Shown here one piece after another: positions 11,301-25,866 of a stretch of DNA of 64,000 nt (positions are counted from its first letter, which is position 1; each line of letters begins with the position of its first letter). Location: positions 1 to 64,000 of the forward strand of contig CALSLT010000044.1 in the NCBI GenBank assembly GCA_943787265.1. Reading direction: 5' to 3'. Both the position numbers and the translations under genes were made by a program. Source of the DNA: an uncultured Planctomycetaceae bacterium (GTDB taxonomy: Bacteria; Planctomycetota; Planctomycetia; Planctomycetales; Planctomycetaceae). The notes beneath the pieces were generated by a model that worked only from the letters and a program-made list of their open reading frames with translations, was not told the origin of the DNA and made no database searches.

Positions 11301-11473
11301 TTGGCCTCGTCAGGGCCGTGGCACTTGAAGCAGTTGTCAGACAGAAGCGGCAGAATGTCGCGACTGAAATTGATGTCGTCATCCGCGGCTGAAACGCTGC
11401 AGGTTGCAGCGAAAACAAGCAGAAACGTGGAGAGCGTTTTTTGATTCGTCATGCGAAGGTCAAATACCAGCAA
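8345..11473 (-). CDS. PSD1-type protein (DUF1549 / DUF1553, PSCyt1 N-terminal cytochrome-like domain)
   Basis: 1042 aa. N-terminal signal and [19 protein letters not shown] motif (planctomycete cytochrome C), central DUF1549, C-terminal DUF1553 blocks, paralogous to 54903-58442. Paired with the DUF1501 gene immediately downstream. Confidence 0.85.
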
Positions 11474-11578
11474 ACTAAAGTGAGCCGAACGCGTTTGCGT
11501 CAGGCCGGATATAGAAGCAGGCCGAGGCCCAGGACTTTCACCCGCGGCTCTCGGCCTTCTTCAGATTTCAAGTTGAAA

Positions 11579-12919
11579 CTAAACCGCGGAAAAGATCGAA
11601 TTCTGAACTACGCCGGTGCTGTCTGCGAATGAGTCTCGTTCGATCTTCATTGACCGCAGAATGCTGAGGTAAACATTCGACATCAGCGTCTCACCGTCTC
11701 GCCAGTACGAGCCATGCTTCAATCCCATGTTTGAACCACCGGCGAGTAGCGTTGGGAGATTTCTTGGATTGTGAGTCGTGCTGGCACCGCTGCCGAACAG
11801 GACGATGCTGTTATCCAGCAGGCTGCCATCACGATCTTTGTAAGACTGCAGCTTCTGGAAGAAGTACGCCAGTTGCTCACTGAGGAATCGGTCGTACTTC
11901 GCGAAGTCCAACTGTCCGTCTTTGTCACCAGCGTGCGACAGGCTGTGGTGAGTCCGGCTGAGGCCGAGCTTTAGCGGGAACGTATCGCTGATGCCCATGC
12001 CGTCTTCGCGGTTCAGCATGAAGGCGACTGAGCGAGTGATGTCAGCATCAAACGCCAGCGCGATCAGGTCGAACATGTTGCGGTAGTACTCAGCCGGTTC
12101 GCCTTCTGGCGTAACGTCCAGATTGAGGTGCGAGTAGTCCTGCTCCTTGACCGGAATGTCGATCCACTTTTCAGACGCGATCAGACGAGACTCGACTTCG
12201 TTCAGCGAGGTCAGGTATTGGTCCATTTTCTGCTTGTCAGACTTGCCAAGCTTTCGATTGAATGTCTTTGCATTTTCCAGCACGGCGTCAACCAGTTTGA
12301 GTCGTTTCTTCAGGCTGTCGCGTTTTGATTCCAGCGAGGCTCGGTCACCACGGAACAGTCGATCGAAAACTCGCCGAGGGTTGTTCTCAGCGGGGATCGG
12401 TTTGCCTTCCAGGCTGTATGAGATCGTACCGGTTCTTGACAGGAAACCCGTTCCGGCGTCGATCGACAGTACCAGCGATGGTTGTCGGCAATGCTGTTTG
12501 GTGTGCAACGCAACGATCTGGTCGAGTCCGACCGAGTTGTATTTCCCCGGCTTTGAATTGTGCAGCGGAGCACCGGTCAACCACATATCCGAGCAGACGT
12601 GCGGATCAGCCTTCGGGCCGCTTGAGTGGTAGAGGCCGCCCATAAAGCTGAGGTGATCACGAAAACCGGCCAACGGTTCGGTCGACTTACCAAAAACAAA
12701 TTTGCCGTCTTCTTCGGCTGTCGGAAACCAGTGCCACTCCGGAATCGCGTTCTTCTGATTCGGCAACGACATGCCGTTGGCCGTGTACATCGCACAGAAC
12801 CGGCGAGGAGTTTGCTCGGCGACTTCAGATCCCATCGCGTCGAGAACTGGCAGAGCCAGTGAGGCTCCAGCGAGCCCTTTAAGAACGGCACGGCGATCAA
12901 GTTGAGTGGAGTTGGCCAT
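11579..12919 (-). CDS. DUF1552 domain protein, TAT signal
   Basis: Start taken at the internal Met (cat at 12917-12919) giving [24 protein letters not shown]. The ORF track extends to 12970. Classic partner of the DUF1592-family gene immediately upstream. Confidence 0.8.
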
Positions 12920-16441: not shown

Positions 16442-16981
16442 CTGATCGACCCGAATCCCCCGAGGTCATCTCGTCAACGTTGTGACACCTCTGGCAGTAC
16501 TTCTGAATCAGCGGTTGGACCCTTAACTGCAAAGGCGTCTTGTTCTGCGGCCTCAAGGACTCTGCTCACTAGAACTAGGGACTACCAGAAAATACAAATG
16601 AAGATTCTTCATGCTCAGGCCAGAGATTTGGTCGTGCTGATTGGAAATCGTTCGCAAGGGTCTCTATTTCTAAACGATCATCGTTTGGTGGACCACCGGA
16701 TGTTGATCTCACGAAAACTTTCAATTTCATAGAAATCGCGCGAACAAAGTCGAGTGCTCGAGCATCTAACTGCCAACCAACGCGACGAGGTCAACTGACT
16801 TCGCTGCAACAAACAAGTCAACTCATAACGAATAGTCCGGGTACAAGCACGATGATGGTTTTCAGCTTAGGTCTTATAGGCGAACAGAGTGGATCGGAAA
16901 GGTTTGCTGATCAATCAGTGAATCTGCTCCCGAGCCCCCTGCGCTTGTGACACCTGGCAAAAACCTCTCGTGTGAGAACCA

Positions 16982-17016
16982 AAGCCCGGTGTCATCCAGA
17001 CATCGGGCTTTTTTCG
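16982..17016 (+). terminator. rho-independent terminator immediately upstream of the tRNA array
   Basis: GCCCGGTG-TCATCCAGA-CATCGGGC followed by TTTTTT. Confidence 0.55.
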
Positions 17017-17100
17017 TGTGCCGAGGGCACTTGATACGAGCTACCGCTCGTGAGTTGTGATCGGGAGCTGACCACGAAGGCACGAGAACTGACGGAACAT

Positions 17101-17173
17101 GGAGCGGTAGCTTAGACGGAAAAAGCGTCCGGTTGAAGCCCGGAAGAGACGGGTTCGAGCACCGTCCGCTCCA
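17101..17173 (+). tRNA. tRNA-Phe(GAA)
   Basis: Acceptor GGAGCGG/CCGCTCC, anticodon stem TCCGG/CCGGA, loop TTGAAGC, T-loop TTCGAGC. The T-stem has one mismatch. Confidence 0.7.
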
Positions 17174-17230
17174 CTTGGATGATTCGGATTCGACGAGTTC
17201 GAAGAAGCGACTCGATGGAAAACTCAATAC

Positions 17231-17303
17231 GCCCCGTTCTTCTAAAGGCTCAGGATGCTGGCCTCTCATGTCGGCGATGCAGGTTCGAATCCTGTACGGG
17301 GGT
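17231..17303 (+). tRNA. tRNA-Glu(CTC), slightly irregular
   Basis: Anticodon stem CTGGC/GTCGG, loop CTCTCAT; T-arm GCAGG-TTCGAAT-CCTGT. Position 1:72 is a G.G mismatch and the D/26 region is atypical. Confidence 0.55.
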
Positions 17304-17325
17304 ACTTTCAAAACCAAACGTACTT

Positions 17326-17401
17326 CGGGATGTAGCGTAGTCTGGCTAACGCGCCTGGTTTGGGGACCAGGAGATCGCAGGTTCAAATCCTGTCATCCCG
17401 A
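17326..17401 (+). tRNA. tRNA-Pro(TGG) variant with 8-nt anticodon loop
   Basis: Acceptor CGGGATG/CATCCCG (C1:G72, Pro-like), D-stem GCGT/ACGC, anticodon stem CCTGG/CCAGG enclosing TTTGGGGA (8 nt). Alternative fold is a 6-bp stem with a 6-nt loop. Confidence 0.55.
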
Positions 17402-17509
17402 CTGCGGCCCAGGCCGCTTTGATGCCGTGGTCAGCGGAAACGGATTACAACGCTGAGTGCGGCGAGGACGTCGTGGGCATCCAAAAGGGACGCTCATAAA
17501 ACGAAGTAG

Positions 17510-17583
17510 AGGGGTGTGGCGGAGTTGGTCACCGTGCCTGATTTGGAGTCAGGAGATCGCAGGTTCGAATCCTGTCACCCCGA
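17510..17583 (+). tRNA. tRNA-Pro(TGG)
   Basis: Anticodon stem CCTGA/TCAGG, loop TTTGGAG; D-stem GCGG/CCGT; T-arm GCAGG-TTCGAAT-CCTGT. Position 1:72 is A.G mismatched. Confidence 0.65.
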
Positions 17584-17667
17584 ATGCAGCCAAGGCTGCT
17601 TTGTTGTCGAGTTCAGCGGAATGACAAACAACACTGAAGGCGGCAAGTTCGCGAAAAGAAAAATCAT

Positions 17668-17740
17668 AGCCCGGTCGTTCAACGGTCAAGGACGCCGTCC
17701 TGATAAGGCGGAGACGAAGGTTCGACTCCTTCTCGGGCTA
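17668..17740 (+). tRNA. tRNA-Ile(GAT)
   Basis: Acceptor AGCCCGG/TCGGGCT, anticodon stem CCGTC/GGCGG, loop CTGATAA, T-arm GAAGG-TTCGACT-CCTTC. Confidence 0.8.
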
Positions 17741-17888
17741 CTGCGGCCCAGGCCGCTCTTAAGCCGTGGTCAGTGGAAACCGTAAACAACACTTACTGCG
17801 GCGAGTTCTTCTTTCCGCAAAGAAACAACTGAAAGACGAATGTCATGGCTACGTTACATCGTTTGAAACAGATACCCACCCTCAACGC

Positions 17889-17960
17889 GAGGTCGTGGTG
17901 TAACGGCAGCACATCGGTCTTTTAAACCGACCAGTGAGGGTTCGAATCCCTCCGGCCTCA
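17889..17960 (+). tRNA. tRNA-Lys(TTT)
   Basis: Acceptor GAGGTCG/CGGCCTC, D-stem GTGT/GCAC, anticodon stem TCGGT/ACCGA, loop CTTTTAA, T-arm GAGGG-TTCGAAT-CCCTC. Confidence 0.8.
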
Positions 17961-18007
17961 TTGAGCGGTGAGTCGCAACCAGCGGATACGCAAAAGCGAT
18001 TCGCCTG

Positions 18008-18079
18008 CGGCCCGTAGCTCAATGGTGAGAGCAGGCTCCTTATAAGGGCACGACGACGGTTCGAATCCGTCCGGGCCGA
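18008..18079 (+). tRNA. tRNA-Ile(TAT) candidate
   Basis: Acceptor CGGCCCG/CGGGCCG, D-stem GCTC/GAGC, anticodon stem GGCTC/GGGCA (27:43 G.A), loop CTTATAA, T-arm GACGG-TTCGAAT-CCGTC. Confidence 0.6.
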
Positions 18080-18093
18080 ATGAGAGGATCACA

Positions 18094-18339
18094 ATGAAAA
18101 CCAAACAGTACAGACAATGTCGACTTCAACGTGGCAACGCCGTTCGAGTGAGCTGGTTGCCGGCTCAATACGCAGTCGAAGGACGAGTTCTAAAGCTGCG
18201 TGACAACGACGTATGGTCAAACGGCTGGGTCGTCAAAGACGCATACAAAGAAAGCGATCGAGACGTGGCTCCTGATACTCGGCGAGCGGTCAGGAAACAT
18301 CGACAAGCCTCGGGAGACGCTCTTCCGAGGCGTGCATAA
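18094..18339 (+). CDS. hypothetical small basic protein (81 aa) inside the tRNA array
   Basis: ATG preceded by GAGAGGA at appropriate spacing. Arg/Lys-rich, no recognisable domain. Confidence 0.4.
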   Translation: MKTKQYRQCRLQRGNAVRVSWLPAQYAVEGRVLKLRDNDVWSNGWVVKDAYKESDRDVAPDTRRAVRKHRQASGDALPRRA

Positions 18340-18346
18340 CGAAGCG

Positions 18347-18419
18347 GGATCGAGGTGTTAGCGGCAGCACATCCGGCTCTTAACCGGACAGGTGAGGGTT
18401 CGAGCCCCTCCGATCCCAA
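18347..18419 (+). tRNA. tRNA-Lys(CTT)
   Basis: Acceptor GGGATCG/CGATCCC, anticodon stem TCCGG/CCGGA, loop CTCTTAA, T-arm GAGGG-TTCGAGC-CCCTC. Confidence 0.8.
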
Positions 18420-18524
18420 TTCTATTTTTACTCTCGACGCGACTCGGAAATCACCCAACTGCGATCAGGATGCGCACACACCGCACGCTCAAAAACAGTT
18501 CATCAATCATCACTCAACGAAGCA

Positions 18525-18596
18525 CTAGTCGTCCAGCGGCTAAGACACCGCACTCGTAATGCGGCAACGTGAGTTCGAGTCTCACCTGGTGCTCTA
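18525..18596 (+). tRNA. tRNA-Thr(CGT)
   Basis: Acceptor GCACTAG/CTGGTGC, anticodon stem CCGCA/TGCGG, loop CTCGTAA, T-arm GTGAG-TTCGAGT-CTCAC. D-stem pairing is weak. Confidence 0.65.
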
Positions 18597-18628
18597 ACGG
18601 TTCTTTGACAATCTGGCACTGAAATATC

Positions 18629-18699
18629 GCGCCCATGATGTAGCGGTAGCCTACCGCCTTGCCAAGGCGGAAGTGCGGGTTCAACTCCCGCTGGGCGCT
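18629..18699 (+). tRNA. tRNA-Gly(GCC)
   Basis: Acceptor GCGCCCA/TGGGCGC, D-stem GTAG/CTAC, anticodon stem CCGCC/GGCGG, loop TTGCCAA, T-arm GCGGG-TTCAACT-CCCGC. The 8-9 connector is 4 nt and position 26 is missing. Confidence 0.65.
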
Positions 18700-18884
18700 T
18701 GCAAACCGGGTGTTTGCATCGGGTGGCGTTGGCGTGTCGGGTCTGCTCCGAGGTCGGTGTTCGCACCGGGCACGTCGATGGGCTTCGGTTTGCTGAAGAG
18801 AAAATTACGCGGAACGTTCAAGCCGAATCGGTTGACGATCGCATGTCGACTTCAATCGGCTATCGATCCAAGCGTTCCGTTTGG

Positions 18885-18956
18885 TGCGGTGTGGCCAAAT
18901 GGTAAGGCAGCTCCCTGTTAAGGAGACGATTGCAGGTTCGAATCCTGCTACCGCAG
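18885..18956 (+). tRNA. tRNA-Asn(GTT)
   Basis: T1:A72 and discriminator G; anticodon stem GCTCC/GGAGA, loop CTGTTAA, T-arm GCAGG-TTCGAAT-CCTGC. Confidence 0.75.
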
Positions 18957-19019
18957 CTTGTGTGCAAGTCCAGAGTTGAGTGTCGAGTGTCCATAGATAC
19001 TGGCTGACTCTCATCTCCG

Positions 19020-19104
19020 GACTCTTTCGGAAGCCAACCGGCTGGATCAGGAGCCTGTTTCGAAAACAGGTGCGGGCGAACGTCCGTTGTGGGTTCAAGT
19101 CCCA
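19020..19104 (+). tRNA. tRNA-Ser(CGA), long variable arm
   Basis: 85 nt. Acceptor GGAAGCC/GGCTTCC, discriminator G, anticodon stem CCTGT/ACAGG, loop TTCGAAA, T-arm GTGGG-TTCAAGT-CCCAC. Confidence 0.8.
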
Positions 19105-19140
19105 CGGCTTCCGCTCTGCAGAACATCGGCCAAGAGCACT

Positions 19141-19190
19141 GTCCGTTCGATGTTCAGCGTTGGATGTTGAATGTTCGATGTTCATCACGT
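19141..19190. repeat. GATGTTCGA-type short repeat cluster (copy A)
   Basis: CGATGTTCAGCGTTGGATGTTGAATGTTCGATGTTCATC; a related palindromic cluster lies at 24937-25020. Confidence 0.6.
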
Positions 19191-19260
19191 GCCTCTGACC
19201 GAGCGGCAAAGGTACCGGGTTTCCATTCCGGACAGGCGGGTTCGACTCCCGCGAGGCACT
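19189..19260 (+). tRNA. tRNA-Gly(TCC)
   Basis: Acceptor GTGCCTC/GAGGCAC, discriminator T, anticodon stem CCGGG/TCCGG, loop TTTCCAT, T-arm GCGGG-TTCGACT-CCCGC. D-stem is weak. Confidence 0.65.
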
Positions 19261-19350
19261 CTTGAGACAGGGATCGCTAGCAGAAACACGGAACAGTAGG
19301 ACCGACGGGGCGGTGGCTGTTCCGTGTTTGCTGCGGGGAGTGATCCACTC

Positions 19351-19425
19351 TGCGGGGTAGTTTCTGCTGGTAGAAATACGCGACTTTGAATCGCGTGTCT
19401 GCAGGTTCGATTCCTGCCCCCGCAA
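19351..19425 (+). tRNA. tRNA-Gln(TTG)
   Basis: T1:A72; D-stem GTTT/AAAT; anticodon stem CGCGA/TCGCG, loop CTTTGAA; T-arm GCAGG-TTCGATT-CCTGC. Confidence 0.8.
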
Positions 19426-19495
19426 CTGCGTACGACATGGTCGGCTTGTTCGAGTTTCCGCTCGGACAAGGATCGAAAATCAATCGGAAGAGACT

Positions 19496-19566
19496 ATTGC
19501 GGGATCGTTTAACGGCAAGACACAGCGCTCTGAACGCTGAGATGTTGGTTCGAATCCAGCTCCCGT
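19496..19566 (+). tRNA. tRNA-Gln(CTG)
   Basis: Acceptor TGCGGGA/TCCCGTA, D-stem GTTT/AGAC, anticodon stem CAGCG/CGCTG, loop CTCTGAA, T-arm GTTGG-TTCGAAT-CCAGC. Confidence 0.75.
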
Positions 19567-19633
19567 AACTTCGCGTGATCGCATCGTTCGATCTGCCGCC
19601 AGGTGATCAAGTTGCGATTACACAACGACTACG

Positions 19634-19718
19634 GAAGTCATCCGGCTGGATGAGGGCTCTGTCTTGAAAACAGAGGCGGGTAAACGCCCGTTGTGGGTTC
19701 GAGGCCCACGGCTTCCGC
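19634..19718 (+). tRNA. tRNA-Ser(TGA), long variable arm
   Basis: 85 nt. Acceptor GGAAGTC/GGCTTCC, discriminator G, anticodon stem TCTGT/ACAGA, loop CTTGAAA, T-arm GTGGG-TTCGAGG-CCCAC. Confidence 0.8.
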
Positions 19719-19795
19719 CTCGGAAAGGCAGAAACCAGAAGACAGAAGGATGGATAGTTTTCAGCCTTCGGCCTTTTGATTTCAGCCTTTCACAC

Positions 19796-19868
19796 GGTCC
19801 TGTGGCCTAGCGGCGAAGGCAACTCCCTTACAAGGAGACAATCGGTGGTTCGAGTCCACCCAGGATCA
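19796..19868 (+). tRNA. tRNA-Val(TAC)
   Basis: Acceptor GGTCCTG/CAGGATC, anticodon arm ACTCC-CTTACAA-GGAGA (compare E. coli CCTCCCTTACAAGGAGG), T-arm GGTGG-TTCGAGT-CCACC. Confidence 0.75.
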
Positions 19869-19873
19869 CTTAG

Positions 19874-19943
19874 TCCCGAGTATGCCAATGGAAGAGCAGT
19901 CCGAATTGTCGGATGGTTGCAGGTTCGATTCCTGCCTCGGGGC
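19874..19943 (+). tRNA. tRNA-like gene, anticodon undetermined (degenerate)
   Basis: Good acceptor (TCCCGAG/CTCGGGG) and T-arm (GCAGG-TTCGATT-CCTGC). The anticodon arm folds only as GTCCG-AATTGT-CGGAT (6-nt loop) or with an 8-nt loop; the D-stem is unpaired. 70 nt. Confidence 0.35.
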
Positions 19944-19949
19944 CCACAC

Positions 19950-20022
19950 GGCACCGTAGCCCAACGGCAGAGGCAGTCGTTTCAAACGCAACAAAGTGTG
20001 AGTTCGAATCTCACCGGTGCCA
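19950..20022 (+). tRNA. class-I (short variable arm) tRNA with Leu anticodon CAA
   Basis: Acceptor GGCACCG/CGGTGCC, D-arm GCCC-AACGGCAG-AGGC, anticodon stem GTCGT/GCAAC (one C.A mismatch), loop TTCAAAC, variable AAAGT only, T-arm GTGAG-TTCGAAT-CTCAC. Confidence 0.5.
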
Positions 20023-20039
20023 TTCAAAACTTACAACAC

Positions 20040-20114
20040 GCCCCTGCAGAGCAGCCAGGAGTGCTCGCCATCCTGTCACGATGGAGACCGTCGGTTCGAA
20101 TCCGATCGGGGGTG
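20040..20114 (+). tRNA. tRNA-Asp(GTC)
   Basis: D-stem GAGC/GCTC, anticodon stem CCATC/GATGG, loop CTGTCAC, discriminator G, T-arm GTCGG-TTCGAAT-CCGAT. Confidence 0.8.
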
Positions 20115-20191
20115 CTTGTGAAAGGCGGAAGGATGAGGGCAGAAGGATGATTTGAATTCAGCCTTCATCCTTCTGACGTCAGCCTTCATAC

Positions 20192-20263
20192 GACGCGGTA
20201 GCCCAATGCAGAGGCAACCGGTTTAAGCCCGGTCAAGTGCGGGTTCGAGTCCCGCTCGCGTCA
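20192..20263 (+). tRNA. class-I (short variable arm) tRNA with Leu anticodon TAA
   Basis: Acceptor GACGCGG/TCGCGTC, D-arm GCCC-AATGCAG-AGGC, perfect anticodon stem ACCGG/CCGGT, loop TTTAAGC, variable CAAGT, T-arm GCGGG-TTCGAGT-CCCGC. Confidence 0.55.
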
Positions 20264-20280
20264 CTCGAAGAAATCATTGC

Positions 20281-20352
20281 GGCCCATTCGTCTAGTGGAG
20301 AGGACACCTGGTTTTCATCCAGGCAACGGGAGTTCGATTCTCCCATGGGTCA
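20281..20352 (+). tRNA. tRNA-Glu(TTC)
   Basis: TTCGTCTAGTGGAGAGGACACC D-arm as in E. coli tRNA-Glu; anticodon stem CCTGG/CCAGG, loop TTTTCAT; T-arm GGGAG-TTCGATT-CTCCC. Confidence 0.8.
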
Positions 20353-20367
20353 CTTTCGAAAATACAC

Positions 20368-20441
20368 AGCATCGTAGCCCAATTGGCAGAGGCGCCTGGT
20401 TTAGGTCCAGGAGGTTGAGAGTTCGAATCTCTCCGGTGCTA
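20368..20441 (+). tRNA. class-I (short variable arm) tRNA with Leu anticodon TAG
   Basis: Acceptor AGCATCG/CGGTGCT, D-arm GCCC-AATTGGCAG-AGGC, anticodon stem CCTGG/CCAGG, loop TTTAGGT, variable AGGTT, T-arm GAGAG-TTCGAAT-CTCTC. Confidence 0.55.
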
Positions 20442-20524
20442 CTTGAGTCAAAAGATGAGAGACCAGAGGCCAGAGGTTTTGCAGCATTCACGCTGGTCTC
20501 TGGTCTCTCGACTCTGAACTCAAT

Positions 20525-20610
20525 GGGCTTTGCTCCTCACGGCGGTCTGTAAAACCGTTGTCGGAAAACAAGTGAGGTGGTGACGAGAGGTTCAATTCCT
20601 TCAAGGCCCA
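20525..20610 (+). pseudogene. tRNA-Tyr(GTA)-like gene lacking a D-arm (aberrant or pseudo-tRNA)
   Basis: Acceptor GGGCTTT/AAGGCCC, discriminator A; anticodon stem GCGGT/ACCGT, loop CTGTAAA; long extra region; T-loop TTCAATT. Only 10 nt lie between acceptor and anticodon stem, so no D-arm can form. Confidence 0.4.
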
Positions 20611-20627
20611 ATCCAGAACGAAATCAC

Positions 20628-20710
20628 GGCCAGGTGGTGGAACGGTAGACACGCGACGCTCAGAACGTCGTGCCGCTTAAGGCATGGGAGTTCGAATCTC
20701 CCCCTGGTCA
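20628..20710 (+). tRNA. tRNA-Leu(CAG), canonical class II
   Basis: 83 nt. Acceptor GGCCAGG/CCTGGTC, discriminator A, GGTGGTGGAACGGTAGACACGC D-arm, anticodon stem CGACG/CGTCG, loop CTCAGAA, long variable arm, T-arm GGGAG-TTCGAAT-CTCCC. Confidence 0.85.
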
Positions 20711-20905
20711 TTAAAGAGTTGAAAGTAAATAGTTGATTGCTGATAGCAACTGCGAACATAGATGTCAGCAGCCGACTCCATCTCTCAACTATCGACTTTC
20801 AACCATCTACTTAATGCAGGTGTGGCAGGTGCCCAGTTGGCTCTCATAAGGCCGACCTCCCCGGATCGTTACCGGGACCTGCGACTTGCAATTTCTGATC
20901 AACAT

Positions 20906-20974
20906 CGCGGGTGGGCGAGTGCTCATCGGGGCCTCATAAGCCTCGACGGCCAGGTGCGACTCCTGGACCCGCTT
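20906..20974 (+). pseudogene. initiator tRNA-fMet(CAT)-like gene with truncated D-loop
   Basis: 5' CGCGGGTGG as in E. coli tRNA-fMet; C1 unpaired with position 72; anticodon stem GGGGC/GCCTC with three G:C pairs at 29-31:39-41; loop CTCATAA. T-arm CCAGG-TGCGACT-CCTGG has G at position 55. Only 69 nt; the D-arm is about 4-5 nt short. Confidence 0.4.
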
Positions 20975-20986
20975 CTTTCGCAACAC

Positions 20987-21062
20987 GGCCGAGTACGCAA
21001 TCAGGCAAAGCGGCGAGGTCGAGAGCCTCGTGATTTTGTGGGTTCGACTCCCACCTCGGTCA
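20987..21062 (+). tRNA. class-I tRNA-like with Leu anticodon GAG
   Basis: Acceptor GGCCGAG/CTCGGTC, anticodon stem CGAGG/CCTCG, loop TCGAGAG (C at position 33), T-arm GTGGG-TTCGACT-CCCAC. D-arm irregular. 76 nt. Confidence 0.4.
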
Positions 21063-21151
21063 CTTTGAGTTGAGAGTGGATTGTTCAGAGTCCGGAGGCT
21101 TTTCCTAAGCGGTACCTCTGGACTCTCGTCTCTCAACTCTGGTCTCAACCC

Positions 21152-21223
21152 GACTCCGTGGTCCAACGGCAACGACACCTGCGTGACATGCAGGAGACGA
21201 TGGTTCAACTCCATCCGGGGTCA
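21152..21223 (+). tRNA. tRNA-Val(GAC)
   Basis: Acceptor GACTCCG/CGGGGTC, anticodon stem CCTGC/GCAGG, loop GTGACAT, T-arm GATGG-TTCAACT-CCATC. Confidence 0.75.
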
Positions 21224-21234
21224 TTCCATTTGCC

Positions 21235-21313
21235 ATTAGTTATTTGTCATTTCTCATCGGTCATTGGGAGCCTGTTTACCGGGCAATGACAATTGAGAAA
21301 TGACAAATAACTA
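21235..21313. repeat. AT-rich 31-bp near-perfect inverted repeat (21-bp perfect core) with 17-bp loop
   Basis: TTAGTTATTTGTCATTTCTCA(TCGGTCATTG) ... (CAATGACAAT)TGAGAAATGACAAATAACTAA. About 25% GC in a 55% GC background. Confidence 0.8.
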
Positions 21314-21327
21314 ATGACAAATACTCC

Positions 21328-21398
21328 GGGCTGCTCGTCTAATGGGAAGACGCTTGGCTTGCAACCAGGTAATCGGGGTTCGACTCCCCGGCGGTCCA
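21328..21398 (+). tRNA. tRNA-Ala(TGC)
   Basis: G3.U70 Ala identity pair; D-stem GTCT/AGAC; anticodon stem CTTGG/CCAGG, loop CTTGCAA; T-arm CGGGG-TTCGACT-CCCCG. Confidence 0.85.
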
Positions 21399-21408
21399 CT
21401 TGAAGAAG

Positions 21409-21479
21409 TGGGGTCATGGTCCAATGGGACGACTCCAGCATGGCATGCTGGCAATCCGGGTTCGATTCCCGGTGACTCC
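21409..21479 (+). tRNA. tRNA-Ala(GGC)
   Basis: G3.U70; anticodon stem CCAGC/GCTGG, loop ATGGCAT; T-arm CCGGG-TTCGATT-CCCGG. Confidence 0.8.
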
Positions 21480-21495
21480 ATTCTCAAATCGATAC

Positions 21496-21583
21496 GGAAG
21501 GTAGCCGGATACGGTTTGCCGGACCGCACTGCTAATGCGTGTGCCTGTCATGGGTCATGTGGGTTCGAATCCCATGCCTTCCG
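21496..21583 (+). tRNA. tRNA-Ser(GCT), long variable arm
   Basis: 88 nt. Acceptor GGAAGGT/GCCTTCC, discriminator G, D-stem CCGG/CCGG, anticodon loop CTGCTAA, T-arm GTGGG-TTCGAAT-CCCAT. Confidence 0.8.
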
Positions 21584-21602
21584 CTCTTTGCAACAACAAT
21601 CT

Positions 21603-21674
21603 GGCTCGATGGTGAAACGGAGATCATCCCTTGCTTCTAACAAGGAGTTCCGGGTTCGATTCCTGGTCGGGCTA
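21603..21674 (+). tRNA. tRNA-Arg(TCT)
   Basis: D-stem GTGA/TCAT, perfect anticodon stem CCTTG/CAAGG, loop CTTCTAA, T-arm CCGGG-TTCGATT-CCTGG. Confidence 0.8.
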
Positions 21675-21689
21675 CTGGAGGAAAATGAA

Positions 21690-22157
21690 ATGAACTCAAC
21701 ATCTCATGTCATCGATAGTTTTGCCGGCGAGTACCGGTTTCTGTCGAACTTCTATCCGTCAACGATTTTCGTAGACGGATTCAGATATCCGACGGTCGAG
21801 CACGCGTTCCAGGCAGCGAAGACTGCTGACAGCGCTGCGAAACAGAAAATCGCAACAGTTCAATCGGCACTCCGAGCCAAGAGTCTCGGTCGTCAAGTAC
21901 GACTGAGAAAGGACTGGGAAGCGGTTAAGGTTGCCGTGATGAGGCAGTTTGTGACTCTGAAATTTGAGTCGCATCCCGATCTGGCAGAAATGCTGCTTGA
22001 TACGGGCGACGCGAAGCTCATTGAAGGCAACAGTTGGAATGATACCTACTGGGGCGTCTGCGGAGGTCGCGGAAAGAATCACCTCGGCAAAATTCTGATG
22101 GGAATCAGAACTCAGCTTCTGGTAACGAATCGTGAAACGACAGGGAGTATCGGCTAA
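21690..22157 (+). CDS. NADAR (DUF1768 / YbiA-like) domain protein
   Basis: GGAGG 8 nt upstream of ATG 21690. FAGEYRFLSNFYPSTIFVDGFRYPTVEHAFQAAKT ... WNDTYWGVCGGRGKNHLGKILMGIRTQL matches the NADAR consensus. The ORF-track N-terminus (21342) overlaps tRNAs and is rejected. Confidence 0.85.
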   Translation: MNSTSHVIDSFAGEYRFLSNFYPSTIFVDGFRYPTVEHAFQAAKTADSAAKQKIATVQSALRAKSLGRQVRLRKDWEAVKVAVMRQFVTLKFESHPDLAEMLLDTGDAKLIEGNSWNDTYWGVCGGRGKNHLGKILMGIRTQLLVTNRETTGSIG

Positions 22158-22173
22158 GCCCGCTGCTCCGACG

Positions 22174-22264
22174 GAAGGGCAACCCGATGGGCGACGGGAT
22201 CCGGTTGGAAGCCGGGCGAGTGCGTTAACGCGTGCCTTGCGGGTTCGATTCCCGCTCCTTCCGC
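22174..22264 (+). tRNA. tRNA-Ser(GGA), long variable arm
   Basis: 91 nt. Acceptor GGAAGGG/TCCTTCC, discriminator G, anticodon stem TCCGG/CCGGG, loop TTGGAAG, T-arm GCGGG-TTCGATT-CCCGC. Confidence 0.8.
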
Positions 22265-22280
22265 TGCGTGTGAGGATCCA

Positions 22281-22877
22281 ATGACTGCTTATCGACAAGT
22301 TCGAGCGAACTACGACCGGGCATCGATTGTCGTCTACCAGGCGTACAACGATGCGATTGCCGATTCAGCAATCGATGCACAGAAGTTTGTGGCTCCGTTT
22401 TCATTCAACCGAATGACCTGGATCAAGTCGTCGTTTCTGTGGCTGATGGAACGGAGCGGCTGGGCGACGAAGGCGAATCAAACTCGGATTCTGGCCATCC
22501 GAATCAGTCGGTCAGGATGGGAGCGGGCATTGTCGCAAGGAGTGTTGACGTCTTTCGAACCTAGCGTGCATCGCTCGGTCGACGCGTGGAGACTGCAGTT
22601 CGAAGCCTCGCCGGTTCACGTTCAATGGGATCCGGAAAGGTCGATTCACGGCAGGAAACTGGAGCATCGAGCGATTCAAGTCGGTATCAGCCGGCAGCTC
22701 ATCGAGGAATACGTGTCGTCGTGGATTCAGAGCATCGAAGACATGACCCAATTTGCAAACAAGGTCAGGCGAATGCGCATGGCTGGTAAACACTCTGAAG
22801 CTCGTCGGCTGCTTCCGATCGAACGGGAATACTCCGTTCAATCTGAAACCCGACGACAACTCGGAATTTCTAAATGA
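22281..22877 (+). CDS. DUF4291-like hypothetical protein (198 aa)
   Basis: GAGGAT RBS. The motif FSFNRMTWIKSSFLWLMERSGWATK resembles DUF4291-family proteins; this assignment is from memory and tentative. Confidence 0.6.
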   Translation: MTAYRQVRANYDRASIVVYQAYNDAIADSAIDAQKFVAPFSFNRMTWIKSSFLWLMERSGWATKANQTRILAIRISRSGWERALSQGVLTSFEPSVHRSVDAWRLQFEASPVHVQWDPERSIHGRKLEHRAIQVGISRQLIEEYVSSWIQSIEDMTQFANKVRRMRMAGKHSEARRLLPIEREYSVQSETRRQLGISK

Positions 22878-22971
22878 CTGACAGACTCAACCGGTCAAAC
22901 GTCCAGTCTGGAAAACCTGACGTTCGAAGTGCAACGCGTTTGCACGCAACTGGCATGAAAGGAGCTCGACG

Positions 22972-23751
22972 ATGATCACAACAAGAACTACAGACCTGCG
23001 TCGGCTCAACAGTGCGACGAAGTATCCGTCGATTGCGACGTATCACGCACTCGGAGAGAAGGGGCGGTTATTGCCAGACCATGTTGACTTGGGTGACCAG
23101 CCGTTGGTGTTGACTGAAAAAGTCGACGGTACCAATAGTCGAATTATCCTCATGCCGGACGGTGCTTACCTGATCGGGAGTCGTGAAGAGTTGCTCCACG
23201 CAAAGGGCGATCTGATTCACAACCCGGCGATGGGTATCGTCGATGCTTTGAGATCGTTCGCTGACAGTCTGGTTGAGATACGAAGTCCGGCCCCGGATGT
23301 CATCACAACGATCTATGTTGAGACTTACGGCGGCAAGACGACGGCGGCTGCAAAGCAGTACACGGGCGAGCGTCGTATCGGGTTTCGCCTGTTCGACGTA
23401 AGCATCGTGCCGATTGGGCAGATCTATTCCACACCGGAACAGATTTCGGCCTGGCGTGAATCAGGTGGGCAGAGTTTCTTCTCTGAAACTCAACTGGCTG
23501 ACTTTGCAGCGGAATCAGGCGTTGAACTGACGCCTCGAATTCAGTGCGAAAGTCAGTTGCCGGTGTCAATTTCTGAAACGCATGAGTGGCTGAAGAGTCA
23601 TCTTCCAGCAACACAGGTTGCACTGGACGAGAAGGCTGGCGGTAAGCCGGAAGGCCTCGTCGTTCGTACGGTCGATCGAAAGCGAATCGCCAAGATTCGT
23701 TTCGAAGACTACGAGCGACACGACCGACGGACTTCGAAATCAGCGCGATAA
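22972..23751 (+). CDS. ATP-dependent RNA ligase, Rnl2-like nucleotidyltransferase family
   Basis: AAAGGAG RBS. Motif I KVDGTN (TEKVDGTNSRII), motif IV EGLVVR, motif V lysine (AKIRFEDY). The N-terminal KYPSIATY block is typical of RNA-ligase adenylyltransferases. Confidence 0.8.
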   Translation: MITTRTTDLRRLNSATKYPSIATYHALGEKGRLLPDHVDLGDQPLVLTEKVDGTNSRIILMPDGAYLIGSREELLHAKGDLIHNPAMGIVDALRSFADSLVEIRSPAPDVITTIYVETYGGKTTAAAKQYTGERRIGFRLFDVSIVPIGQIYSTPEQISAWRESGGQSFFSETQLADFAAESGVELTPRIQCESQLPVSISETHEWLKSHLPATQVALDEKAGGKPEGLVVRTVDRKRIAKIRFEDYERHDRRTSKSAR

Positions 23752-23814
23752 CTTGTCGCTCAATGTTTGTCAGAGATGTACGGTCGCCGTCCGTTGTGGC
23801 GGCGACCGATTTAT

Positions 23815-23889
23815 GGTGTCCGTAGTGTAAGGGTCTTGCACGCGACTCTGTGGAAGTCGAAGAGACGGGTTCAACTCCCGCCGGACACC
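23815..23889 (+). tRNA. tRNA-His(GTG) with encoded G-1
   Basis: G-1 and discriminator C73; D-stem GTGT/GCAC; anticodon stem CGACT/AGTCG, loop CTGTGGA; T-loop TTCAACT. Confidence 0.8.
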
Positions 23890-24001
23890 CTCCACCAAAC
23901 CGAGCGTTTGGATCGGATAGCCGTTGGCGTGCATTTTCAATAAGCACGCTGAATCGGCTTGATCGATCAAAGGCGAATTAACTAAGGGAAGGAATGGTTC
24001 G

Positions 24002-24598
24002 ATGGTGGCCTCTGTTCTGGAGAGACCGACGCTTGTGCTGAATCGCAACTGGCAGCCTGTTGGCGTTGCCACGGTTGCTAAGGCACTGACGAAGGTCTGG
24101 AACAAAACGGCTCGGATTGTCGATCCGGCCGACTATCAGCAGTACTCATGGGAGAACTGGTCAGAGCTGCGTCCTGAGGACGGTGATCTGTTTATTCAGA
24201 CGAACCGGTTTCAGCTGCGGGTTCCGGAAGTGGTCACGCTGACGAAGTACGACCGACTTCCAAAGAGCGCTGTGACCTTCAGTCGAAGAAACGTTTTTAA
24301 GCGTGACAAGTTCATGTGTCAGTACTGCGGTGCTCAACCGGGCAGCGAGGAACTGACGATTGACCACGTCCTGCCGCGTGCTCAGGGAGGAACGTCCACT
24401 TGGGCTAACTGCGTGCTGGCGTGCATCGACTGCAATTCGCGGAAGGCCGACCGAACTCCGGAGCAGGCTCGGATGCCGTTGCGGTCGACGCCGGTCCGTC
24501 CAAAGTGGAAACCGGTCTACGCGTCACGCGGAATTCGTATCGAAAGCTGGTCGCGGTTCATTAGCGAAAGCTACTGGAACGCCGAACTGGAGAAGTAG
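24002..24598 (+). CDS. HNH endonuclease family protein
   Basis: C-terminal CQYCG...HVLPRAQGG...NCVLACIDCNSRKADR HNH zinc-binding motif. Confidence 0.8.
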   Translation: MVASVLERPTLVLNRNWQPVGVATVAKALTKVWNKTARIVDPADYQQYSWENWSELRPEDGDLFIQTNRFQLRVPEVVTLTKYDRLPKSAVTFSRRNVFKRDKFMCQYCGAQPGSEELTIDHVLPRAQGGTSTWANCVLACIDCNSRKADRTPEQARMPLRSTPVRPKWKPVYASRGIRIESWSRFISESYWNAELEK

Positions 24599-24679
24599 CG
24601 AAGGGGACAAGGGGTGAGCGTCAAGGGGCGAGAGCATTTAGCTCTCGACTCTGGCCTCTCGTCTCTCGACCAGAAAACA

Positions 24680-24749
24680 CAGCGGTGTGCTCCTGGGAGA
24701 GCAGACAGATTCCAAACCTGTCTCACGGGGTTCGACTCCTCGCACCGTT
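24680..24749 (+). tRNA. tRNA-Trp(CCA), irregular
   Basis: Discriminator G; D-stem GCTC/GAGC; anticodon arm GACAG-(A)TTCCAAA(C)-CTGTC with an A.C closing pair; T-arm CGGGG-TTCGACT-CCTCG. 70 nt with a 1-nt connector and 3-nt variable loop. Confidence 0.5.
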
Positions 24750-24783
24750 GCTGCGGCATGGCCGCTTTGTTTTGAGATAATTG

Positions 24784-24857
24784 CCGACGTGGCTCGATTC
24801 AGAAAGGCACCGGTCTTGTAAACCGGATGGATGTGGGTGCGAATCCCACCGTCGGCT
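24784..24857 (+). tRNA. tRNA-Thr(TGT)
   Basis: Perfect acceptor GCCGACG/CGTCGGC; anticodon stem CCGGT/ACCGG, loop CTTGTAA; T-loop TGCGAAT (G at position 55). Confidence 0.7.
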
Positions 24858-24861
24858 CTGA

Positions 24862-24933
24862 GCCCTGCGGGTGTGATGGATAGCATGGCAGTCTTCGAAA
24901 CTGTCGGACGAGGTTCGACTCCTCGGCGGGGTG
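24862..24933 (+). tRNA. tRNA-Arg(TCG)
   Basis: D-stem GTGT/GCAT; anticodon stem GCAGT/ACTGT, loop CTTCGAA; T-arm CGAGG-TTCGACT-CCTCG. Confidence 0.7.
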
Positions 24934-24936
24934 CTT

Positions 24937-25020
24937 GATGAACATCGAACATCCAACACTGAACGTCCAACATCGAATATTGGTATTCGATGTTCGTTGT
25001 TCGATGTTCAAAACGTCTTC
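24937..25020. repeat. GATGTTCGA-type repeat cluster (copy B, palindromic arrangement)
   Basis: TGAACATCGAACATCCAACACTGAACG ... ATTCGATGTTCGTTGTTCGATGTTCA. Confidence 0.6.
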
Positions 25021-25024
25021 AGAG

Positions 25025-25097
25025 TGTGGCGGATTCGCACGCGACCCTGCGAAGGTCGAGGACCAGGTTCGACTCCTGGTGAGGACACTCTTTAGTC
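25025..25097 (+). tRNA. tRNA-Arg(GCG)
   Basis: D-stem GTGT/GCAC; anticodon stem CGACC/GGTCG, loop CTGCGAA; T-arm CCAGG-TTCGACT-CCTGG. Confidence 0.7.
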
Positions 25098-25173
25098 CAG
25101 AGTCGAGGGGCAAGAGTCCAGAGGATTACTCTGGACTCTCGTCCCTCAGCTCTCGACTCCACTGACACCGATG

Positions 25174-25245
25174 CTCGATGGTCGGGCGGCTGGCTGCAAC
25201 CCAGCTTTGAGTGAGTTCGATTCTCACCGGTGTCTCTTTCATGCT
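25174..25245 (+). tRNA. tRNA-Cys(GCA)
   Basis: Perfect acceptor GACACCG/CGGTGTC, discriminator T; D-stem GCTC/GGGC; anticodon stem GCTGG/CCAGC, loop CTGCAAC; T-arm GTGAG-TTCGATT-CTCAC. Confidence 0.8.
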
Positions 25246-25339
25246 TGACTTGATGTTGTCATGACCGGCGGCGCGATTGGCTCTTTGTCAGAAGTTGGCC
25301 AGGCGTGTTCCGTGAACGGGTTCTGAACGTGACAACATC

Positions 25340-25411
25340 GAAGTGGTCGCCCAACGGTAGGGCACCAGGTTGTTAACCTGGATGTTGCGGGTTCGATTCC
25401 CGTCCACGTCT
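25340..25411 (+). tRNA. tRNA-Asn(GTT), second copy
   Basis: D-stem GCCC/GGGC; anticodon stem CCAGG/CCTGG, loop TTGTTAA; T-arm GCGGG-TTCGATT-CCCGT. Acceptor has one A.G mismatch. Confidence 0.65.
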
Positions 25412-25866
25412 CTGGTGGAAAACCAGATACTGACCGGCGCGATAGCGTCACCATTGAGCCCACGGGAGATGATTGTTTACTGAATCGGCTGCCGGTGTGT
25501 TCATGCTTGGTTTGCTCATCGCGGCGAGAGCCGCGTGTGGCGATGCCAGTTTTGACAGACATCCGGCAGCAGCATGAGTGGCGTGCCATGCAGTGTGTGG
25601 ATACCGCATTCTCGATGGCGACTTGAGCTGGTGAATCAGGGAACTCCGCTGACGCGTTCATCGTGAAGGCGGACTGACCGACGACATCAGCAAGCGTCGC
25701 TAATTCCAGCTTGCTCAAGCATCACTCCGCGCGTCGAAGTGTGATTCGTAAACGATTCATCTCCCAACGGTTTCTTTCAAGGCAGAAGGCGAAAGGATGA
25801 AGGCGAAAAACGCTTGTCTTCATCCTTCTGCCTTCTGAATTCATCCTTTCACAAAGGCGGTGGCCC

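Follow-up and report, generated by a model that had tools for sequence, protein, structure and literature searches.

We analysed a 64-kb window of a planctomycete chromosome from an uncultured Planctomycetaceae bacterium (the window being this whole stretch of DNA, to which all coordinates below refer unless a contig is named), in which four protein genes, for a NADAR protein, a DUF4291 protein, an ATP-dependent RNA ligase and an HNH endonuclease, are embedded in a long tRNA gene array (L-array). The four genes are probably cargo cassettes of a horizontally mobile L-array, which would join tRNA supply to RNA repair under the control of its leader. The island is best read as a stress-inducible tRNA supply plus RNA repair locus, for which we infer the biochemistry, the co-transcription and the sensing logic. 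The gene/tRNA arrangement recurs in independent metagenomes and genomes, and all four genes are under purifying selection, the ratio of nonsynonymous to synonymous divergence (dN/dS) being 0.04-0.20 against their orthologs in sister arrays.

The tRNA array and its embedded genes

ARAGORN called 40 tRNA genes in 8.3 kb (17101-25412), all on the plus strand; 30 of the 40 passed the Rfam gathering score and most of the others were recovered at relaxed thresholds. An L-array is defined by at least 20 tRNA genes in one orientation, at a density of about two or more per kb and without periodicity (PMC8421152, PMC4758250), and with its 40 genes in 8.3 kb the window array belongs to this class. Neither ARAGORN nor Rfam found a tRNA gene elsewhere in the 64-kb window; the housekeeping tRNA set of the host lies outside it. 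Nineteen amino-acid specificities are represented, Tyr being absent, and the 3' CCA is encoded by only three of the 40 genes. The array is flanked by ordinary planctomycete chromosomal genes (PSCyt/PSD, DUF1501, HXXSHH); no phage structural, replication or integrase genes were seen among the flanking open reading frames (ORFs) examined, and there is no step in GC content across the array. A pattern scan found no convincing terminator inside the array and one weak promoter-like site, within the ligase gene.

The four ORFs lie on the plus strand, interleaved with tRNA genes, exactly where a first-pass annotation of this DNA had placed them. They encode a YbiA-type NADAR protein of 155 amino acids (aa) (21690-22157; PF08719), a DUF4291 protein of 198 aa (22281-22877; PF14124), a stand-alone ATP-dependent RNA ligase of 259 aa (22972-23751; PF09414) and an HNH endonuclease of 198 aa from a family associated with long tRNA arrays (24002-24598; PF01844, PF14279). 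ARAGORN places tRNA-Ser(GGA) (22173-22264, plus strand; 98% identity with the copy in the sister array L178) between NADAR and DUF4291, and tRNA-His(GTG) (23816-23890, plus strand) directly 5' of HNH. The annotation had also given each gene its own ribosome-binding site, and Shine-Dalgarno-like sites do stand 4-7 nucleotides (nt) 5' of each start: GGAGGA at 21677 for NADAR, GAGGA at 22272 for DUF4291, AAGGAG at 22959 for the ligase and GGAAGGA at 23988 for HNH. Its four domain calls were all matched in a Pfam profile search, in agreement with NCBIfam and PHROGs.

The ligase belongs to the ATP-dependent RNA-ligase fold, as had been proposed: it matches PF09414 over profile positions 2-170 of 171 (E 3e-12; 47.5 bits against a cut-off of 27) and, in PHROGs, phrog_548 'RNA ligase' (E 6e-10). 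The residues K50 (in TEKVDGTN), E117, F141-D142, E227-G228 and K241 do not vary among 32 homologs from five phyla and, by analogy with Rnl2, would represent the nucleotidyltransferase motifs I (with its lysine), III, IIIa, IV and V. The family, which is very highly conserved, consists of stand-alone proteins of ~260 aa that share 50-66% identity across Planctomycetota, Cyanobacteria, Actinomycetota, Myxococcota and Chloroflexota. The AlphaFold2 (AF2) model of the window protein has a predicted local distance difference test (pLDDT) score of 90.5, and its best Foldseek matches are T4 Rnl2, Naegleria NgrRnl, TbREL1 and archaeal Rnl3 (E 2e-7 to 1e-5; template-modelling (TM) score ~0.5). The top 29 PDB matches (E 2e-7 to 6e-5) are RNA ligases of the Rnl2, Rnl5, REL1 and Rnl3 types, with the exception of 3qwu, which was deposited as a putative ATP-dependent DNA ligase. 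T4 Rnl2 and NgrRnl (Rnl5) match the catalytic domain best (E 2e-7 to 1e-6; TM ~0.5); in contrast to them, the window ligase, at ~15% identity (15% to 2hvr), has neither the C-terminal domain of Rnl2 nor the N-terminal domain of NgrRnl. The protein ends 18 residues past motif V, with a single helix at 244-258 in the model. No solved ligase was detectable by sequence in a PDB-wide profile search, in which the best hit was an unrelated protein (E 0.04). The earlier label 'Rnl2-type' is thus apt for the catalytic fold but not for the architecture or the sequence: as modelled, the protein is a catalytic (adenylyltransferase) domain only, with an Rnl2/Rnl5-like fold, outside the Rnl2 family proper.

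The neighbourhood search bore out the association of the ligase with tRNA arrays, in sister arrays as well as in phages. Among the 14 planctomycete loci, 8 have the ligase next to an array of 3-33 tRNA genes (with two of these contigs end-truncated), and no comparable array was found beside it in 66 loci of other phyla, where one myxobacterial locus has three tRNAs directly 5' of the gene. The marine contigs L098 and L099 share the order tRNAs-oxygenase-ligase. A Ro60 gene (TROVE+vWA) lies within ~7 kb of the ligase in six loci (L015, L016, L017, L096, L101, L113) and in the viral contigs L192 and L195; in Streptomyces phage JustBecause Ro60 is immediately 3' of the ligase and follows closely on four tRNA genes. 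In two sister arrays the ligase is ~1.3-2.1 kb 5' of the Ro60 gene (L017 10859-13782; L015 10001-14566), and the gap in L017 holds a tRNA-Cys gene and a YrlA-like Y RNA (11536-11643 of that contig; 46.9 bits, E 6e-9). The jumbo-phage contigs L196 and L197 bring together tRNA arrays, Thg1, a methyltransferase, a homolog of the window HNH, NUDIX and the ligase. In Nodularia phages the ligase is followed by DUF4326, a separate family that is predicted in the literature to process ADP-ribose phosphates; BLASTP found no similarity of this protein to NADAR, and we rejected it as a NADAR relative. The recurrent neighbours of the ligase (tRNA arrays, Ro60, a Y-RNA-like gene, Thg1, NUDIX) speak, by association, for its taking part in repairing structured RNAs such as tRNA or in controlling their quality, where it would seal RNA ends with a 3'-OH and a 5'-phosphate.

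DUF4291 matches PF14124 over its full length (profile 1-180 of 180; E 2e-69, 233.6 bits). The family motifs have been defined as QA[YF], WIK and [AS]IQ (PMC12522546); they are present as Q20-A21-Y22, W47-I48-K49 and A131-I132-Q133, and most of these residues are invariant in 30 homologs, together with many Arg, Lys and His residues. The family is highly conserved and mostly solitary, and has no match in 50,697 phage records. It has been predicted to be an atypical ADP-ribosyltransferase (ART) resembling diphtheria toxin, with neighbourhoods enriched in NUDIX, Macro, ARH and Tpt1 genes, the last in ~10% of neighbourhoods (PMC12522546). A Foldseek search with the DUF4291 model gave one significant structure, 7RT7 (RhsP2; E 2e-4, TM 0.71 target-normalised), and the match was obtained by two methods, which places the protein in the ART fold. 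At 7-10% identity to RhsP2 there is no sequence-profile match, and a DUF4291 profile found no relatives among PDB sequences. The C-terminal toxin domain of RhsP2 attaches ADP-ribose to the 2'-OH of structured RNAs, tRNA among them (PMC12340436, PMC11833690), and its E1576Q mutant is inactive (PMC12340436); the 2025 survey of DUF4291 does not mention RhsP2 (PMC12522546). The triad of ARTs (R/H - S/Y - E), which in RhsP2 is R-Y-E, is replaced in DUF4291 by the QAY/WIK/AIQ motifs, and no specific relatedness to Tpt1/KptA was found in either structure or sequence. Unlike RhsP2, DUF4291 is free-standing and cytoplasmic, with no secretion domain and no immunity gene. Because the fold is RhsP2-like but lacks the catalytic Glu, we take DUF4291 as a predicted RNA-directed enzyme that handles NAD or ADP-ribose, rather than as an established ADP-ribosyltransferase.

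The NADAR protein matches PF08719 (E 7e-32, 111 bits against a cut-off of 35), TIGR02464 (99 bits against a cut-off of 73.7) and phrog_1017 (E 5e-46). Its nearest solved relative is E. coli YbiA (2b3w, E 2.5e-28), compared with E 5e-9 for 8bau, which we take to represent the DarT-associated NADAR type; by sequence the window NADAR is of the YbiA type. Its close relatives (~70% identity) are ordinary solitary planctomycete genes. Array-borne copies adjoin 2-oxoglutarate-Fe(II) (2OG-Fe(II)) oxygenases, and in L181 a Macro gene lies ~1.5 kb 5' of NADAR on the opposite strand. NADARs, those of the YbiA type included, remove base-linked ADP-ribose (on guanosine or cytidine) from RNA and DNA (PMC11833690, PMC12945103).

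The HNH protein matches PF01844/PF14279 (E ~2e-14) and phrog_16726 (E 4e-32), and has the pattern CQYC...DH...N...CIDCN, a beta-beta-alpha-metal motif with flanking Cys pairs. A full-length homolog, WP_010999558.1 (30% identity, 97% coverage, E 4e-19), is encoded directly 5' of the 24-tRNA array on Anabaena pCC7120delta, and from this position we infer that its gene is all8564, a gene co-induced with the array, whose product has been proposed to spread it as a homing endonuclease (PMC8421152). Among phages, the closest homologs come from jumbo phages; a homolog in Myxococcus phage Mx1 stands between two tRNA-Leu genes, with a TROVE-domain gene ~4.5 kb 5'. The first-pass annotation had left it open whether HNH was the nuclease partner of the repair genes or a homing endonuclease. 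The homology to the array-linked Anabaena protein argues for the latter: HNH is most likely a homing-type endonuclease that spreads and maintains the array, not a repair partner.

Sister arrays and the exchange of cassettes

Several metagenome contigs carry the exact proteins of the window, and its tRNA order is common to L178, L091-93 and L015. The 8-kb contig L178 is collinear with the window at 82-98% nucleotide identity, and reads Ala(tgc)-[2OG oxygenase A]-Ala(ggc)-Ser(gct)-Arg(tct)-[NADAR]-[2OG oxygenase B]-Ser(gga)-[ligase]-His-[HNH]-Trp, with NADAR 89% (in the same slot as in the window; tblastn), the ligase 88% and HNH 98% identical to the window proteins. Between the tRNA genes, window and L178 differ by clean indels of gene size. 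The corresponding stretch of L091-93 reads Arg(tct)-Ser(gga)-[DUF4291, 78%]-[an ORF that is not a ligase]-His-[HNH, 85%]-Trp, and that of L089 reads DUF4291-ligase-His-HNH. In L015, with 33 tRNAs in the same order, HNH follows tRNA-His and the ligase is at the 3' end of the array. The order tRNA-His then HNH is kept in L015, L089, L091 and L178 (HNH identity by tblastn is 98% in L178, 85% in L091 and 68% in L015), and the flanking genes are non-orthologous between the different arrays. NADAR occurs without DUF4291 in L178, and DUF4291 without NADAR in L089 and L091-93. From this comparison of arrays we therefore concluded that the ligase and HNH are recurrent cargo, and that NADAR, DUF4291 and the 2OG-Fe(II) oxygenases are interchangeable accessories.

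Against sister-array orthologs, dN/dS is 0.09-0.15 for the ligase, 0.04-0.12 for HNH and 0.20 for NADAR. Divergence along the array is mosaic, the synonymous divergence (dS) from L178 being 0.22 for HNH, 0.52 for NADAR and 0.74 for the ligase. The low divergence of HNH beside the diverged ligase and NADAR is compatible with homing or recent gene conversion.

Two distinct 2OG-Fe(II) oxygenase cassettes (PF13640) occupy fixed slots of the related arrays (L178 3637-4185 and 4963-5520; L005 9350-9913; L181 9019-9582 and 10522-11088). One of them adjoins the ligase in Gimesia, and sister arrays put a 2OG oxygenase in place of DUF4291 yet retain the ligase. Possible activities of these enzymes include oxidation or demethylation of RNA or tRNA bases. 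In L093 the ligase slot, from DUF4291 to tRNA-His, is occupied by an ORF of 263 aa (10637-11428 of that contig; the same region in L091 and L092), on whose strand the gene callers differ. This ORF was considered as a diverged ligase and rejected, with an hhalign probability of 0.1% and no Pfam match.

A conserved leader upstream of the array

The region 5' of the array (16735-17100) is common to eight planctomycete array lineages. About 400 nt before the first tRNA are conserved among the window, L091 and L015, and the core of this leader is also found 5' of the arrays in L005, L010, L012, L017 and L009. It contains a small ORF of 32 codons (MMVFSLGLIGEQSGSERFADQSVNLLPSPLRL, followed by a stop codon; 16852-16950, plus strand), ~150 nt 5' of the first tRNA, and then an intrinsic-terminator-like hairpin with a U-tract (16981-17014, plus strand; found by pattern scan), ~85 nt before tRNA-Phe. 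In all eight lineages the leader ORF has 32-39 codons, ends in LRL or LRC before the stop codon and keeps its position relative to the terminator. The terminator hairpin is near-invariant in the other arrays, and across the eight lineages it is 95% paired with compensatory changes.

The stop-codon region of the leader ORF (16948-16958, plus strand) is complementary to the 5' arm of the terminator (16984-16994), and we propose it as the 5' strand of an antiterminator. In the alignment of the eight lineages 92.5% of the cells of this helix are paired, as compared with 25-49% for controls in which the partner was slid, and one of its pairs varies as CG/UA/UG. By minimum free energy the full leader folds into the terminator, and into the antiterminator when the 3' arm of the terminator is omitted. 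We read the leader as a probable leader-ORF attenuator that would couple transcription of the array to ribosome performance, and would thereby reach by another route the induction under translational stress that is known from Anabaena. Leader-peptide transcription attenuators are well known from the trp and his operons and from the antibiotic-sensing erm and cat leaders. The window leader resembles them in having a short ORF followed by mutually exclusive antiterminator and terminator hairpins before the regulated genes; it differs in that the genes under its control would be tRNA genes, and in that the antiterminator overlaps the stop codon instead of a run of regulatory codons.

Proposed function of the island and relation to known systems

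We propose the following working scheme. The array would supply a near-complete extra set of tRNAs, with genes for RNA-related proteins occupying the slots between them. When the leader ORF is translated to its stop codon, the antiterminator would be masked and transcription would end short of the tRNA genes; stalling or failure of ribosomes within the leader would let the antiterminator form, and the tRNAs and the embedded genes would be transcribed together. The ligase could then reseal broken tRNAs or other structured RNAs with 3'-OH and 5'-phosphate ends, filling the niche that RtcB has in the Salmonella rsr-yrlBA-rtcBA operon and beside the cyanobacterial arrays. NADAR, DUF4291 and, in sister arrays, the 2OG-Fe(II) oxygenases may be alternative modules that deal with RNA that is chemically damaged or linked to ADP-ribose: NADAR as an N-glycosidase that takes ADP-ribose or its derivatives off bases, and DUF4291 as an RhsP2-like enzyme handling NAD or ADP-ribose on RNA. 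HNH would spread and maintain the array by homing. Co-transcription of cargo and tRNAs is presumed in this scheme, and the counter-defence role suggested by the first-pass annotation is likewise conjectural.

Several observations weigh against it. NADAR and DUF4291 occur together only in the window's own lineage and never both in the sister arrays examined, so that the four genes do not form a fixed module; and the description of the island as self-contained is not supported, as it holds no kinase, phosphatase or cyclic phosphodiesterase to heal RNA ends. There is no Ro60 gene in the 64-kb window. Outside arrays and phages, clustering of ORFs within 3.5 kb of the ligase at ~110 loci gave no conserved partner, only lineage-specific synteny plus Ro60, and the ligase, NADAR and DUF4291 families consist mostly of solitary genes at a distance from any tRNA. 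In DUF4291 an invariant Gln133 stands where the motif-III Glu is expected, and Gln20 where motif I should have R or H. NADARs do not remove 2'-O-ADP-ribose of the RhsP2 type (PMC11833690), and a YbiA-type NADAR could be a plain metabolic N-glycosidase. For the leader, the shuffle control of the antiterminator, a helix derived from the same sequences, was not significant; the leader peptide shows little sequence conservation; and its codon-position signal points both ways, with a third-position excess between the window and L091 and none among the Gimesia sequences. A sigma-70 scan, which does not cover planctomycete promoters, found one site against 3.9 expected.

A rival reading takes the array as a phage-derived or otherwise mobile element and the four genes as unrelated hitchhikers that came to lie between tRNA genes by chance, coupled functionally neither to the tRNAs nor to one another. 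Cassette content does vary among otherwise collinear arrays, three of the enzyme families are mostly solitary elsewhere, HNH and the ligase are common in phages, and the divergence is mosaic (dS against L178 of 0.22 for HNH and 0.74 for the ligase). We regard such passive carriage as unlikely: the theme of the cargo is non-random, as it comprises an RNA ligase, enzymes of ADP-ribose/NAD, oxygenases, and Ro60 accompanied by a Y-RNA-like gene; the slot of each gene within the array is fixed; the links of the ligase to arrays and to Ro60 recur in independent lineages and in phages; and purifying selection on all four genes is strong. A bolder form of the proposed scheme would make the arrays translation-sensing operons, in which the attenuator detects ribosome failure and co-expresses spare tRNAs, minimal ligases of a pan-bacterial family that are counterparts of RtcB in Ro60/Y-RNA repair, and DUF4291 as an RhsP2-like but glutamate-less ART-fold enzyme with a new NAD+-dependent reaction on tRNA, e.g., Tpt1-like phosphotransfer or a protective or marking ADP-ribosylation, with NADAR and the 2OG oxygenases as alternative erasers of RNA damage; we would give this version in its entirety a low probability.

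Two further explanations were weighed. The first-pass annotation had NADAR process ADP-ribose-derived by-products of ligation, and in the full form of that mechanism the ligase would leave a 2'-phosphate, DUF4291 would pass it on to NAD+ as a non-orthologous analogue of Tpt1/KptA, and NADAR would clear the resulting ADP-ribose cyclic phosphate. DUF4291 has an ART-like fold, lacks the catalytic Glu as Tpt1 does and has many invariant Arg, Lys and His residues; it is directly 5' of the ligase in the window and in L089, Tpt1 genes occur in ~10% of DUF4291 neighbourhoods (PMC12522546), and a role in processing what RNA repair leaves behind has been predicted for NADAR (PMC9503650). This pathway is nevertheless improbable, as there is no cyclic phosphodiesterase or kinase to generate ends with a 2'-phosphate, 3'-OH and 5'-phosphate, sister arrays exchange DUF4291 for a 2OG oxygenase while retaining the ligase, and neither the 80 genome loci of the ligase nor phages have a DUF4291 gene close to it. 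Still more doubtful is that NADAR and DUF4291 form a toxin-antitoxin or defence pair of the DarT-NADAR kind, which would keep the array stable or make phage infection abortive. The genes stand close together on a single strand, DUF4291 has its nearest structural match in RhsP2, a toxin that ADP-ribosylates RNA, NADARs are reported to act as antitoxins to guanine-specific ARTs (PMC11543638), NADARs reverse ADP-ribosylation of RNA bases (PMC11833690), and the window NADAR weakly matches candidate defence families. Against such a pair, a tRNA gene separates NADAR from DUF4291, L178 has NADAR only and L089 and L091-93 have DUF4291 only, the window NADAR is of the YbiA type and not of the DarT-associated type, and DUF4291, with its invariant Q133 in place of the catalytic Glu, has no PADLOC match and belongs to a highly conserved, usually solitary family, unlike a toxin. 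A simple writer-eraser relationship between DUF4291 and NADAR is likewise argued against, because NADARs leave 2'-O-ADP-ribose untouched and the genes are separable in sister arrays. We also tried the locus as a known defence system; it was not classed as one because PADLOC gave only generic HNH matches and a weak NADAR match.

Under the reading we prefer, cargo cassettes in a mobile L-array for tRNA supply and RNA repair, the closest known system is the trn operon of Anabaena sp. PCC 7120 (pCC7120delta), in which translation inhibitors induce the array, the HNH gene and rtcB together (PMC8421152). The window array and the Anabaena L-array (Santamaria-Gomez et al., 2021; PMC8421152) are both dense sets of tens of tRNA genes on one strand, the window array being probably, like that of Anabaena, spread by horizontal transfer; both are linked to homologous HNH genes (30% identity over the full length), and both neighbourhoods are enriched in RNA-processing genes including an RNA ligase. 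The proposed role, survival of translational stress with tRNA repair, is also shared. They differ in that the window ligase is ATP-dependent (PF09414) and embedded between tRNAs, whereas that of the cyanobacterial arrays is RtcB; HNH is inside the window array, after tRNA-His, but upstream of the array in Anabaena; the planctomycete cargo adds NADAR, DUF4291 and 2OG oxygenases; and the tRNA order is different. Control would be by a leader ORF and terminator here, as opposed to direct promoter repeats there (PMC8421152).

Phage regions, such as the T4 tRNA cluster with SegB, Rnl1/Pnkp/Rnl2 and the guilds of jumbo phages (PMC7824862, PMC9503650), likewise combine tRNAs with an RNA ligase and a homing endonuclease, and phage repair regions may add Ro/TROVE, Thg1, NUDIX, NADAR or Macro. 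The tRNA regions of the jumbo-phage contigs L196 and L197 contain the same ligase and HNH families together, and in Streptomyces phage JustBecause and Myxococcus phage Mx1, too, these families lie close to tRNAs and Ro60. The window island differs from the phage regions by its chromosomal location, by the absence of a polynucleotide kinase/phosphatase and by DUF4291, which none of the 50,697 phage records contains. The arrangement ligase-YrlA-like RNA-Ro60 of L017 mirrors the association of ligase, Ro60 and Y RNA in the Salmonella rsr-yrlBA-rtcBA operon (PMC7790460). The ligase here would be ATP-dependent and join 3'-OH and 5'-phosphate ends, whereas RtcB there uses GTP and 3'-phosphate ends, and neither RtcR nor RtcA accompanies it; nor does Ro60 in the window.

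Architectures of this general kind have been published for cyanobacteria, where long tRNA arrays have an HNH gene and a linked or co-regulated RNA ligase, RtcB (PMC8421152), and for jumbo phages, in regions that combine tRNAs, an RNA ligase and NAD/ADP-ribose repair (PMC7824862, PMC9503650). The earlier interpretation is supported in part: it was right about the domains and about the link between ligase and tRNAs, whereas a fixed module and self-containment are not supported and the general architecture is not new. Long tRNA arrays had already been reported in Planctomycetes with their cargo unanalysed. To our knowledge the new elements are the embedded PF09414 ligase as recurrent array cargo together with its Ro60 association (the Ro60 link may be in earlier RNA-repair surveys), the exchange of NADAR, DUF4291 and 2OG oxygenase cassettes at fixed slots, the structural link between DUF4291 and RhsP2, and the conserved leader. 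Long tRNA arrays are widespread, and their function and control are understood in one cyanobacterium only. The planctomycete arrays appear as scaffolds for swappable RNA-damage genes, which gives a functional context to three poorly understood families: the ligase, which occurs in many phages and at least five phyla, DUF4291, which has ~5,000 bacterial and fungal members, and the YbiA-type NADARs. If the leader is indeed an attenuator, it would be a simple mechanism for switching on spare tRNAs when translation is under attack. Gimesia alba Pan241w (CP036269.1 2.486-2.490 Mb; L005) is a cultured carrier of such an array.

Some minor features of the array were also noted. Between the ligase stop codon and tRNA-His, 8 nt before the tRNA gene, pattern scan found a GC-rich hairpin (23781-23808, plus strand; 11 bp, of which 9 are G-C) with a weak T-tract that falls short of a proper U-tract; a role in processing or stability is possible. 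At 21224-21327 there is a near-perfect, AT-rich palindromic hairpin of 104 nt (minimum free energy -49 kcal/mol, z -9.7) in the slot that holds tRNA-Thr(GGT) in L178, and this may be an insertion similar to a miniature inverted-repeat transposable element (MITE) or a repetitive extragenic palindromic (REP) sequence, or else a destroyed tRNA gene. The window array lacks any Tyr tRNA because the slot of this gene has been replaced: where L178 has tRNA-Tyr, the window has ~185 nt without alignment to L178 (20443-20627), and the arrays of L015 and of the Gimesia lineage have tRNA-Tyr too, at other positions. A tRNA gene at 17326-17402 scores 61.5 bits, has an anticodon loop of 8 nt and was called with the four-base anticodon UGGG; it resembles a Pro frameshift-suppressor tRNA. 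A tRNA-like gene at 19874-19946 has a shortened anticodon loop and fails Rfam. The tRNA-Ile(UAU) gene at 18008-18079, of a kind that is rare in bacteria, is kept in all related arrays.

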